From positions 10,232,001 to 10,292,000 of the forward strand of contig CM075989.1 of the NCBI GenBank assembly GCA_038087875.1: 60,000 bases of DNA, in the 5' to 3' direction. Made by a program: the position numbers and the translations under genes. A model generated the notes under the pieces. The model ran no database searches and was not told where the DNA came from. It worked only from the letters and a program-made list of their open reading frames with translations. Positions 1,401-11,957 of this stretch are shown here, piece after piece. Numbering within the stretch: position 1 is the stretch's first letter; every line of letters starts with the position of its first letter. This DNA is from Malacoraja senta. Its lineage: Eukaryota.

Positions 1401-1716
1401 CTTCTTGTTCTTGTTCTAAACTTGTTCTTCTCATCCACCCAACAGTTCGGTGGATCTGAAGATAGACACAAAGTGTTGGAATAACTCAGCAAGTGAGGCA
1501 GCATCCATGTACACTTTTGTTTGTTAGTGCATTTATATAGCTTCTATAGGGCAAGAAAATATCCCAATTACCTTGGCATATTTTTTTCACCCTCTTACGT
1601 TCTCTCTAAATCCAGGCGTTATAATGCAGAGATGATATGAGGCAGGGTTGAATTCACCAAATCAACTGGCAAAATGGTGATACAAGGGGACATGCACAAG
1701 GTTGCTGGGGAGCAAA

Positions 1717-1850
1717 CTTCTTCTTACTTATGGCATGCACAGCCTAAAGTTGAAGACACCAAAACACTACATCTATTTGTTTGTGCACGTCAGGTTGATT
1801 GCATTAGTCGAAACAGGGTGGACCACGTGAAGGTTGCCATCTCCCACCCC
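1717..1850 (-). mobile_element. HDV-ribozyme-headed short retroelement (SIDE/SINE-like), copy A
   Basis: Homologous to 4236-4375 with the same 5' end; (AAG)n tail; flanks ggagcaaact/ggggcaaact look like a TSD. Confidence 0.8.
1797..1850 (-). ncRNA. Minimal HDV-like ribozyme, copy A
   Basis: GGGGUGG-GA-GAUGGCA-ACC-UUCACGU-GGU-CCACCCU-GU-UUCGA-CUAA-UGCAAUC; P1, P2, P3, L3 and J4/2 can all be assigned. Confidence 0.8.
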
Positions 1851-3267
1851 AGGGGCAAACTGGAACAGGACCCTCATTAAAAGGTATCAAGCTGTGAATG
1901 TGATCTGAGGAAACACATATGGATGCCTCCAAAAGTCACAAGATTAACATTTTTGCACAAAGTTGAGGGTTTCACATTTTCATTCTGTTATGAAGTTCGT
2001 GCTCGTTGTGAAAAACTAAAACCAGGGACTTACCGTGCAGACAATTTATTGCACAGGAAATTCCTAAGAGCAATCTTCCATCGCGCCCTACCAGTGGCCT
2101 TTAACCAAAGTGTTTCTGCCAAGGACTGAATAGGTTATATCTGGAAACAATTGCTTCAAGTACCCGAGGTATACCTTGATACCAAGGCTAGTGTACTGAC
2201 TGTGAGGGCAGGTAATCGATTTGCATTCTACATCCTTCCCTGTCCAGCTGGCAATACAGAAGAATGTAGGGAATGTTTGTGACAGAAATTAAATTTGACA
2301 ATAAGTAAACAATGAAAAGTGTCCTTGTTAACAATGGAAGAGTAGAGGATTCATTTGGAAATACAGAAATAATTATGATCAGAGTGTCGTAACGCAAAAA
2401 CCAAAGTCACTCAAAATTGCTTCGTGAAACTTTTCCCTGTGGGAAGTTACATGTAGAAGAAATAATGTATTGGAGTGAACAAGAGCAAAATGGTCATGAG
2501 TGATTCTGCGATACTCCAGTACACCAGACACAATACCTATGGAATGGAAGAGTCCCATTTCCTCTGGATGACAGTGAATAAATCACCCAATGTCTTTCTA
2601 CTATCTACAAGGCAGGCTTACCTGGATGAGTGTAAATTCTTCACCATTTAAGAAACATCCAGGATGAAGCCACATCCCATGCACCAGCCAAAACATGGCT
2701 TCTCTCCACCATCAGAGCTTACTGTCCACAAGGTACAGTCCAGCAGCTTGCTGAGAGTCTTAAAGCATCCCCTTTACTGTCTGGAATGGCAAGTGCAGTA
2801 AGCGGATGGAAAAGTTGGCAGCTGATAGAGCTGCTGCCTCATACCAGATGAGGAGAATAAATTGGGTTACGAAGGGATTGGTATGAAAATATGTCTTTGA
2901 TGGTCAGTGTGGACTCAGTGGATTGTTGATGAGTGTAACTCCTAACACTGTAACACTGGGGAGAGGGAGGGTGTGTAGCTTCCACATAAGATTGGAGTGC
3001 AGGGATAGGATGACACACTACCAACTTCTCAAGACAAACTTCGAGACAAGCATCCTTTCCAGCATGCCTTCATTCTGACAGAGTATAACAGAAAGATGTC
3101 AAGTCCTTATTAATGCCTTCTCACATCAGACCTGCAGTGGAGTTCCTATCATTGGAGGTTATCTCTAAAACAATGTTATGTATGATGTGGTTATATCTAG
3201 AAAAAAAAAAGGTAACATGCACATAGGGATGGCAACTTTGAAGAAAAGAACAGTGTAAATATTCCTA

Positions 3268-3832
3268 AAGGGGCTGTCCCACTTGGGCGACCTAATTGGC
3301 GAGTTTAGAAGAGTTTAGGAGAGTTTGAAAAAATGCCATGTTGTAGACCTCCTTCGACTATGTAGAAGACCTCCTTCGACCTCCTTCGACTATGTTGAAG
3401 ACTAGCTTCGACTAGCTACGACTAGCTACAACTAACTTCGGGAAAATTGGACAAAGAATAGTGGAGAGTGAAGATGACCTCCTTCAATCACCTTCGACCT
3501 CCCTTCGACCTCCCTTCGACTATGATGAAGACTATCTACGACTACCCTCGATTACCTACGACTAACATGCCGACCTACTACAACTAAACCTACGAGTAAA
3601 AAAAGTATAGATTTTTTCCATGGCGACCTTTTTTTACTCGCGGGCATTTTTCAACATGTTGAAAAATATGCCGCAACCTAGCTGAGGCCTCGAGTAGGCG
3701 GAGACCACTCTCGAGCATGAAGGAGAGTTACAAAGACCACGTACGACCTCGTGTCGACCATGCTGCGAGTATGAGTCAAGGGCAAACTAGCCAGAACTCG
3801 CGGATTAGGTCGTCCAAGTGGGACAGCCTCTT
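3268..3832. mobile_element. MITE (non-autonomous DNA transposon), AAGGG[G/C]CTGTCCCAC TIR family
   Basis: About 28 bp TIRs (aaggggctgtcccacttgggcgacctaat / attaggtcgtccaagtgggacagcctctt), TA on both sides, internal CTTCGAC/CTACGAC heptamer repeats. Confidence 0.85.
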
Positions 3833-4235
3833 TAGTTGTACATCTTCTTAAGTCCCTCACCCCTGGTAAAATCTTTCCCTGCATCCTTTCTAAGGTTGCA
3901 ACGTCACACCAAATCGTGGGGCTGGAATTATCCACAAACTCCAAATCGAACTGGGAAACTCTCACTGGACAATATTTATCCCAGAACCAAATGGATTATC
4001 TGGCCCTTAGTGGGAGATGGTTGCGTACAAACTGGCTGCTGTGCTTTGTACAGTGCTACAATAATGGCTCTTCAGAAATCATTCACTAGTACAATCACTG
4101 GGTGATTTTGGTGGGGGATTTTGGTGGGGAATCAAGAAAGTCAGTGTGTAGATTCAAAACCTGATTTCCTAGTAATCAACAATCTGTGATGCACATGCGT
4201 GAGAATGTAGAAACAAAGAACTGCAGACAGTGGTT

Positions 4236-4375
4236 CTCTTCTTGTTGCGTGTGGCGTGCACAGCCTAAAATTGTAGGACAACTTGTTCTATTTGATCTTA
4301 TTTGATTGTGCACGCCAGGTTGATTGCATTCGTCGAAACAGGGCGTACCACGTGAAGGTTGCAATCTCCCACCCC
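4236..4375 (-). mobile_element. HDV-ribozyme-headed short retroelement (SIDE/SINE-like), copy B
   Basis: Ribozyme head, 11-bp hairpin (4252-4262/4307-4317), AAG-rich tail, degenerate 12-bp TSD cagacagtggtt/cagatagttgtt. Confidence 0.8.
4322..4375 (-). ncRNA. Minimal HDV-like ribozyme, copy B
   Basis: GGGGUGG-GA-GAUUGCA-ACC-UUCACGU-GGU-ACGCCCU-GU-UUCGA-CGAA-UGCAAUC. Confidence 0.8.
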
Positions 4376-8806: not shown

Positions 8807-9512
8807 ACATTAGTTTGGTAGGTATATCCTCCTGATCTACCCAAGTCCTCTCACGCACACCCTCCTTTCCACTCCCTCCTCCACCCTCCCATCACCCGGT
8901 ACCTGTCCCTTACTCCACCTCCAAGCTTCTGCTCATCACCCTCCCTCCCCCTTTTCTGTGTCCTTTATTCCTCCCCCCCCCCTCCCCACCACTGTTCCCA
9001 TCCAACCACCATCCCTCCCCCTTCTGGGTCCATTATTCCTTCCCCCCTCCTCACCCCGGTTCCCATCCACCCACCATCCCTCCCTCTGGTCCTACATTTC
9101 ATTTTCAACCTTTCATTCCCATCAGATTCCATCATCTGCATCCTTTGTCTTCTCCACATCACCTCCAGCCTTGGTTACTATCTCCACCATCCGCTTCCCC
9201 ACTTGACTCGTGTATCAATCAACCCCCTCCTTACCAACATCTACTTGCCAGCTCTTGCCCAACCCCTTCCCTTCACCTGTATCTACCAGCCTCGATTTCT
9301 TTTTACATTTTCCTCCTCTTAAGCAAAGTGAGACCATCTGAATGTAACACAAAGCCATCAAGAAAATCTGAGGTTTTGTGCAATATCATAAAGGCAGCAA
9401 GAATTGTTCCCAAGACCATAAGACACTGGAGCAGTGTGGGGCCATTCGGCCCATCGAGTCGATTCTGCCATTCCATCATGGCTGATCTACTTTTCCCTCT
9501 TAAACCCATGCT

Positions 9513-9712
9513 NNNNNNNNNNNNNNNNNNNNNNNNNNNNNNNNNNNNNNNNNNNNNNNNNNNNNNNNNNNNNNNNNNNNNNNNNNNNNNNNNNNNNNNN
9601 NNNNNNNNNNNNNNNNNNNNNNNNNNNNNNNNNNNNNNNNNNNNNNNNNNNNNNNNNNNNNNNNNNNNNNNNNNNNNNNNNNNNNNNNNNNNNNNNNNNN
9701 NNNNNNNNNNNN
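9513..9712. other. Assembly gap (200 N)
   Basis: Run of n characters. Confidence 1.
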
Positions 9713-9736
9713 AGGGACAATTTGTAGCACACACAG

Positions 9737-11273: not shown

Positions 11274-11329
11274 GAGAACACGGATAGGTGATGTTTTGGG
11301 TCGGGGCCCTTCTTCAGATCTCTGGTTTA

Positions 11330-11957
11330 GAATGCGATCTGAAAGGTACTTCCCCCAGTACTAGAGGTGCTGTTGAGTGTGCTACAACCTTCTCAACAAC
11401 ACTCCGGCCAGACATGGTCCTGTGGTCCACAACAGCCAAGTTGGCATACGTTGTGGAATTGACAGTTCCATGGGAAGATGGTGTTGAAGAAGCTTATGAG
11501 AGGAAAAAGACCAAGTACTCTGAACTGGCAACTGAAGCTTCCCAGAACGGCTGGATGACCAAGATTTTCCCTGTCGAAGTGGGATGCAGGGGATTTGTTG
11601 CTACATCTATGACCAGGCTATTAAAGAAAATGGGGGTGAGGGGTTGCTCCCTCCAACAAGCAATCAAGTCATTATCAAATTCTGGGGAAATACTGCAATT
11701 GGATCAAAAGGAGAGACAACAATTGGGCTGCAAGATGAAGACAGGAGGGTATGGAATTGAGAGGGGTTGTACCTCGGACACCAGGTATCACCGTTGAGCC
11801 CTCTGGAGATGTTGTGGGCTTATCAATGAAACGTCAAAGAAGGAGGGTGCCCACCTGATGACCCCGATGACGTACCTACCCTACCTTTCACCACTCCAAT
11901 CCCACTGCAAATAACAAGAGTGCCGACTTATTACAGGGATTGAAACATCAAGTCCTA
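11330..11957 (+). mobile_element. HERO-like (RLE-bearing, R2 group) non-LTR retrotransposon 3' fragment
   Basis: LRPDMVLWS..VVELTVPWED..ERKKTKYSEL..PVEVGCRG is a PD-(D/E)xK restriction-like endonuclease domain; 3' UTR follows. Confidence 0.85.

Follow-up and report, generated by a model that had tools for sequence, protein, structure and literature searches.

The question raised by the 60,000-nt stretch of Malacoraja senta DNA analysed here (the window) is whether a 54-nt segment of its minus strand, 1850-1797, folds as an HDV-like ribozyme beyond chance and, if so, to what kind of element the ribozyme belongs. The original prediction rested on two copies of the motif, the second at 4375-4322, each with a single broken stem pair where the other was intact, and from these complementary mismatches it was concluded that the fold was not a chance match. 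Features are collected in Table 1, in which ribozyme position n corresponds to window coordinate 1851-n for the 1850-1797 copy on the minus strand.

Two HDV-like folds in the window

In the copy 1850-1797, P1 (1-7/30-36) is fully paired including the G1.U36 wobble, P2 (10-16/48-54) has a single mismatch, G13.A51, at window position 1838, P3 is ACC/GGU and L3 is UUCACGU. In the copy 4375-4322, P2 is complete and P1 has one mismatch, G7.A30, at window position 4346, U5.G32 is found where the first copy has U5-A32, and J4/2 reads CGAA instead of CUAA. The stem states and both further differences were thus as originally described. The nested double pseudoknot (P1 of 7 bp, P2, P3 of 3 bp and P1.1) is present, the P2 mismatch being private to the 1797 copy, together with the key residues of HDV-like ribozymes, namely the G1.U wobble, U20/G25 and a J4/2 that starts with the cytosine followed by N-R-A. 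P4 is absent from the family, which has 6 nt from position 37 to C44, whereas 24-41 nt separate position 37 from the catalytic C in four sister families. Positions U20/G25, C22-G37, U21/U38 and the first C of the 4-nt J4/2 all agree with the published CPEB3 numbering (PMC4836649).

An HDV descriptor, composed after the motifs in the window had already been seen, matched exactly twice in 120 kb (both strands of the window), at the 1797 and 4322 copies, and gave 3 matches per 2.4 Mb of first-order Markov sequence. Minimum free energy folding with a model lacking pseudoknots gave no signal (z of 0.06 and 1.70 for the two copies), and an Rfam scan of the whole window at E≤1 returned zero ribozyme matches. 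For a 201-nt stretch with an intact copy the best Rfam model was that of CPEB3 (RF00622), where the short-element family fails the 35-bit threshold at 14.8 bits, followed by the F. prausnitzii HDV model with 14.4 bits (threshold 44). The missing folding signal and sub-threshold Rfam scores are what a chance match would have in its favour. This reading is contradicted by the descriptor null, by the covariation across families described below and by the position of the fold at the exact end of an element; it retains next to no probability, and the fold at 1797-1850 is beyond chance.

Table 1. Location of predicted ribozymes, short-element parts and CPEB3-like 5' ends; coordinates without a locus handle refer to the window.
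Feature	Location	Strand	Basis or remark
Predicted P4-less HDV-like ribozyme, 54 nt, subfamily B	1797-1850	-	Descriptor and cross-family covariation
G1, 5' end of the element (1797-1850 copy)	1850	-	Boundary and descriptor match
J4/2, CUAA	1804-1807	-	Sequence layout and CPEB3 numbering
C44, predicted catalytic cytosine, equivalent to CPEB3 C57 and HDV C75	1807	-	Numbering from PMC4836649
G37 (P1.1 with C22), U38 (opposite U21) and 5-nt loop replacing P4	1808-1814	-	Descriptor
LINE 5' UTR-derived part	1755-1850	-	94.7% over 95 nt to full-length L222
LINE 3' end-derived part, with ORF stop codon 1746-1744 and (AAG)n tail 1725-1719	1719-1754	-	
Target-site duplication, upstream copy, 10 bp	1852-1861	-	Extra T at 1851 before G1
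Target-site duplication, downstream copy	1709-1718	-	1 mismatch
Second ribozyme copy, subfamily A (U.G at 5/32, CGAA), C44 at 4332	4322-4375	-	
Entire subfamily-A short element	4236-4375	-	
F2 5' ends passing RF00622	L291:613-690, L293:607-690, L294:607-690		
F2 5' ends passing RF00622	L319:3607-3690, L330:3671-3751, L292:3569-3652, L315:3616-3699	-	
Metagenome LINE head passing RF00622	L350:3261-3344		55.6 bits

The argument drawn from the two stem mismatches is weak. Of the 50 copies whose head was complete, 24 had one or two broken pairs, and 242 of the 276 pairings among these 24 showed non-overlapping breaks, so that complementary mismatches are the default for any two decaying copies. 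Nor are the two copies independent witnesses, both being insertions of one retroelement with private stem breaks. The conclusion, as opposed to the argument, holds on other evidence: 5' ends at G1, sister families with the same fold, and covariation. What had been overlooked is the host of the ribozyme, a non-autonomous Vingi-type retrotransposon.

The fold heads a short retroelement

The segment 1797-1850 is the 5' head of a retroelement of about 130 bp (128-132 bp) with an (AAG)n tail and a target-site duplication. The U.G/U-A and CGAA/CUAA differences mark two subfamilies, A represented by the 4322 copy and B by the 1797 copy, and the two stem breaks are private mutations. The element at 4236-4375 has a degenerate flanking duplication, seen by eye at 4384-4376 and 4235-4228, where the script gave no call.

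Copies were counted as exact pattern matches in the 1.94-Gb genome. A J1/4-P2' pattern found at least 6,465 copies, a 24-nt core 4,113 and a further pattern 2,906, the reversed control being 0 in each case. The family pairs fully, as the two-copy consensus had suggested, since the genome holds 425 A-type 54-mers that are exact and intact. C44 was kept in 94 of the first 100 among the matches listed (by eye), and all four bases were seen at position 45 among the matches listed.

The element boundary was assessed in several ways. When 29 loci were selected by the 3' tail alone (L257 left out as a duplicate), 26 had the head, 23 started at position 1-2 and 11 carried a fully intact ribozyme. The flanking duplications were mostly 9-14 bp and ended between -2 and +1 nt from G1 in 23 of the 25 callable loci (30 examined). 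In contigs from four other organisms the match to the element likewise ended at G1/G2, and at least half of the sampled element words were present in 24 listed sequencing runs from 13 studies and 11 organisms.

Outside CpG sites, ribozyme positions departed from the column majority at 11/741 paired and 4/264 unpaired positions (1.5% each). In the next 43 nt the figure was 44/869, mainly through subfamily differences. The source lineages look constrained in the ribozyme and the inserted copies do not, as far as these sequence comparisons go. In the first 100 among the matches listed, loss of C44 (5) was not significantly less frequent than change of its CpG partner (9).

The ~30-nt middle of subfamily A had no source in 50 LINE loci. 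Additional short-element subfamilies, intermediate between A and B or distinct from both, were recognised by their different middles at L118, L126, L122, L241, L253 and L256. On the minus strand the segment 1755-1796 can pair with 1726-1746, over 8 bp in subfamily B and 11 bp in A. A TIR-type repeat (GGGCCTGTCCCAC-like) was repeatedly found at one TTTA word near the 3' end of the element (L116, L117, L120, L128, L140, L221), and a repeat of the GGGCCTGTCCCAC-like kind also occupies 3258-3840, in the interval separating the 1797 and 4322 copies. Elsewhere in the window, 11288-11797 (+) holds a 169-aa open frame with no significant Pfam match, which we take to resemble the C-terminal restriction-like endonuclease region of an R2/Hero-type retrotransposon, and a run of N at about 9509-9713, seen in the translations, marks an assembly gap or a withheld stretch.

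The partner LINE

The partner LINE was traced via element tails with foreign upstream sequence. Truncated at their 5' ends, the LINE copies have the last ~40 nt in common with the short element, including the ORF stop codon, and the first look gave 482 candidates at the 3' end and 26 mid-element. Other routes were rejected: a search excluding the 5' junction returned mutated short copies only (22 matches), and other LINEs made up the bulk of a Pfam PF14529 search. A recurring upstream word turned out to be another repeat inserted in the element, and L128, one such locus, exposed the LINE.

In the 1797 copy the leading ~96 nt and the terminal ~38 nt of a LINE of ~3.1 kb are joined; this LINE has APE and RT domains and lacks RNase H. 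Its likeness to L222 (94.7% over the first 95 nt) is followed by a jump to the LINE 3' end. L222 is full length, with a duplication, the ribozyme at its 5' end, and APE and RT domains; L221 and L230 are nearly full length. Subfamily B therefore has what defines a bipartite element (SIDE): LINE 5' and 3' ends only, duplications and a LINE-type tail. Judged from its sequence, the short element is an internal-deletion derivative of a Vingi-type LINE.

This bears on the reading of the short element as a tRNA-derived SINE whose head fits the fold by coincidence. The word GTTTCGA at positions 37-43 is loosely B-box-like, but the head has neither an A box nor a canonical B box, a scan of the window for tRNA gave zero calls, and the reading is refuted by the head being the LINE's own 5' UTR, which leaves it only a vanishing probability.

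A 1,019-aa relative, 72% identical, has APE and RT and no RNase H, and RNase H is likewise missing from two intact sister ORFs. The single ORF is intact in P0002 and in copies of the sister families F2 and F5, and broken in all copies examined of the partner LINE (F1). Absence of RNase H distinguishes Vingi from Ingi (PMC13708176, a 2026 review), and the length of ~3.1 kb with target-site duplications is as in Vingi, Vingi-2_Gav being 3,128 bp. In a quick RT tree, which included no named Vingi protein, F1 fell in one clade with F2 and the metagenome LINE L350 against the outgroups, and the 5' ends of F2 and L350 correspond to those of named Vingi elements given in the PMC5786205 supplement. 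The assignment to the Vingi clade, proposed from sequence, is accordingly based on the architecture of the LINE and on this resemblance of 5' ends.

In 4 of 5 copies the LINE ORF is in frame with an AUG that overlaps J4/2 and the 3' strand of P2 (L221:448, L222:467). Inverted pieces of the element's own 5' UTR, or antisense LINE, occur at the 5' junction in L195, L196/L197, L206, L207/L226, L317, L320, L321 and L329; in L226 the inverted piece arose during insertion, because the duplication lies outside it.

Sister families and covariation

Related LINE families found by protein search were 30-41% identical. The families F2-F6, 3.0-3.2 kb where the duplication was callable, have different 5' sequences and the same fold. 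A strict descriptor was passed by 9 of 40 loci, 135-184 nt before the APE motif. In a set of seven representatives (F1A, F1B, F2, F3, F4, F6 and L350), 97.6% of cells were paired, a figure that is partly circular as the representatives were chosen as descriptor-passing, and 13 of 18 pairs were changed on both sides, including a C-G to U-A swap in P1.1. None of 500 shuffles was as good, and slid controls gave 40-49%. F5 was left out of this alignment since an extra base misaligned P1.

A recount over all examined copies gave, for P1 and P2 respectively, 41/49 and 47/49 in F2, 48/49 and 46/49 in F3, 35/35 and 35/35 in F4, and 19/35 and 30/35 in F6, where the weak P1 reflects 5'-truncated copies and a fixed mismatch. 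The catalytic C was kept in 22 of 24 sister copies and was absent from 2 of 5 F4 copies. Across families C44, G1 and the P1.1 pair were kept despite turnover of the helices. Among metagenome LINE 5' regions 1 of 19 passed the descriptor, and a few more, uncounted, resembled decayed versions by eye.

Individual families showed peculiarities of their own. F5 (L305:645-739) has a two-pair P1.1 as in HDV and a bulged A in P2, and in F4 (L318:644-728) a U-A replaces C-G in P1.1. At the 5' junctions of L292, L315, L297 and L317 the first ~26-28 nt of the ribozyme are repeated in tandem, up to 4-6 times, a pattern suggestive of successive template jumps as reverse transcription finishes. Pairing between the region downstream of the ribozyme and that upstream of the tail was equalled by 0/132 internal windows in both F5 copies and by 1/134 and 9/134 in F2. 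It was mixed in F3 (8/136, 57/136) and not found in the F1 LINE copies (85/118, 14/119), F4 or F6. Such pairing of the 5' and 3' ends, significant in the F2 and F5 LINEs only, is a lead and nothing further.

Likeness to the CPEB3 ribozyme

All 7 loci of F2 scored 40.7-64.2 bits on RF00622, and L350, a full-length element of 3.16 kb whose 14-bp duplication stops 1 nt short of G1, also passed the 35-bit threshold (Table 1). Twelve other related loci had no match to this model (10 of other families, and L221 and L222 at E≤5), so the likeness to CPEB3 is a lineage-specific one that the fold does not impose. Compared by eye with the Rfam CPEB3 consensus, L350 agreed at 35/37 of the first and 10/11 of the last positions, and Vingi-2_Gav, as printed in the PMC5786205 supplement, at 38/40 and 14/14. 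From the same supplement, the Vingi-derived part of an alligator SINE also resembles the CPEB3 P4 stem, and lancelet and sea-urchin Vingi heads are similar to CPEB3 at a greater distance. F2 and L350 were sisters in the quick RT tree (SH-aLRT 89), and the likeness starts at G1, which is the element boundary. The F2 copies contain open ORFs of 1,008 and 1,014 aa, and to judge from its sequences the family may have been recently active.

For the CPEB3 ribozyme, LINE-to-gene is the simpler direction. That all 7 F2 loci and L350 pass the RF00622 threshold makes a stranded Vingi 5' end the likely origin of the CPEB3 ribozyme. A wider picture appears probable as a whole: the Vingi clade would start with HDV-like ribozymes, one lineage having reduced the ribozyme to a P4-less 54-nt core and carried it to thousands of sites in a vertebrate genome and another matching CPEB3 almost letter for letter, and the CPEB3 ribozyme would be a domesticated Vingi 5' end in a CPEB3 intron, acquired before the marsupial-placental split.

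The short-element family and the CPEB3 ribozyme have in common L3, a P1.1 of a single C-G plus U.U, G1.U36 and the numbering up to position 38 (PMC4836649). They differ in the sequences of P1, P2 and P3 and in the lack of P4, as reflected in the 14.8 bits above. The short-element family is also on a different branch of the quick RT tree from the CPEB3-like F2/L350, and the CPEB3 ribozyme is single-copy and intronic whereas the short element exceeds 6,000 copies.

Proposed mechanism

The segment 1797-1850 is very probably the 5' end of a ~130-bp non-autonomous deletion derivative of a Vingi LINE, with a predicted P4-less HDV-like ribozyme that likely cuts itself before G1. Copies would be transcribed from flanking host promoters or from an internal promoter, and co-transcriptional cleavage 5' of G1, predicted to depend on C44 and Mg2+, would leave a unit-length RNA with a 5'-OH. 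The LINE protein would bind the LINE-derived 3' end and insert the RNA by target-primed reverse transcription. Under this proposal the 5' junctions lie at G1 because it is the cleaved RNA that is inserted, and the likely job of the ribozyme is to free unit-length RNA from read-through transcripts for reinsertion by the LINE protein.

The main competing explanation is that the fold was kept for another task, such as 5'-end protection, translation start or a Pr77-like promoter, the P4-less form being non-cleaving and transcription starting at G1. An internal promoter starting at G1 would yield the same junctions, and the absent P4, the in-frame AUG in 4 of 5 copies and the non-significant C44 asymmetry all suit it, as do the L1Tc ribozyme that doubles as a promoter and certain well-folded SIDER ribozymes reported inactive in vitro. 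However, C44, G1 and the P1.1 pair were kept while the helices turned over across families, and P4-less HDV-like ribozymes cleave efficiently in vitro according to the theta-ribozyme preprint, so that this explanation is considered unlikely relative to self-cleavage.

Less likely still is that the 1797 copy has been recruited by the host to act locally as a regulatory ribozyme. Co-option of this kind is possible, as CPEB3 shows (PMC10919898), and two copies lie 2.5 kb apart on the same strand, but the 1797 copy has its private P2 break, decaying copies do not spare paired positions, and 0 of 67 non-repeat frames of at least 75 aa in the window had a Pfam match, a count that short exons would escape. 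Co-option here is accordingly rated very improbable. No locus-specific role is indicated for the 1797 copy, which is a decaying insertion, probably slowed by its P2 G.A mismatch, and on its own this single copy is of little importance.

Comparison with known systems

On the sequence comparisons made, the feature at 1797-1850 is with high confidence real, as the head of an abundant short element derived from Vingi and predicted to be an HDV-like ribozyme without P4. In the literature searched, with Ruminski 2011, Webb 2009, Webb and Luptak 2011 and Kojima 2011 lying outside it, there was no link between CPEB3 and Vingi and no report of the short element, and the available parts of PMC5786205 and PMC13708176 attribute no ribozyme to Vingi. 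Kojima 2018, in the part available, lists six clades other than Vingi in a ribozyme context. Lancelet, sea-urchin and lamprey ribozymes have already been described, and these may be heads of Vingi elements classified as Ingi; the statement that Vingi has ribozymes is for that reason perhaps partly anticipated.

The finding would add an animal retroelement to the sources of P4-less HDV-like forms, each of its 425 or more exact intact copies being a potential cut site in host transcripts. Vingi would join the ribozyme-bearing LINE clades, which bears on why it gives rise to bipartite short elements and on gene-insertion tools that are built on Vingi and retain the native 5' UTR (PMC13708176). 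If the CPEB3 connection is true, Vingi 5' ends are the outgroups that evolutionary study of the CPEB3 ribozyme has lacked.

Besides the CPEB3 ribozyme, three known systems come closest. Derivatives of Vingi-1_EE keep only the LINE 5' and 3' ends (Kojima 2011, cited via PMC5786205); the available text of PMC5786205 attributes no ribozyme to them, whereas the short element described here has a predicted one. The drz-Mtgn and theta ribozymes share with the 1797 family the absence of P4 and the catalytic C as first residue of J4/2. In the sections available, the theta-ribozyme preprint describes P4-less forms from metagenomes and phages as active in vitro and reports none from a search of human, mouse and protists. 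The drz-Mtgn and theta forms come from gut metagenomes and phages, many beside tRNAs, whereas the 1797 family heads an animal retrotransposon, and the theta setting, a phage location beside a tRNA 3' end, is not that of a retroelement head in a window without tRNA.

The precedent for a ribozyme-headed LINE with its SIDE is found in R2 and in L1Tc/NARTc (PMC6765202, PMC4035085, PMC8256844). L1Tc/NARTc, ingi/RIME with Pr77 and the R2 SIDEs share with the present family an HDV-like fold at nucleotide 1 of the LINE, of APE type, and its retention in a short, internally deleted derivative with duplications. The short element differs from the trypanosome and R2 systems in its LINE, which is of Vingi type and lacks RNase H, in its setting, the large genome of an animal, and in its 54-nt P4-less core, its length of ~130 bp, its (AAG)n tail and its more than 6,000 copies.
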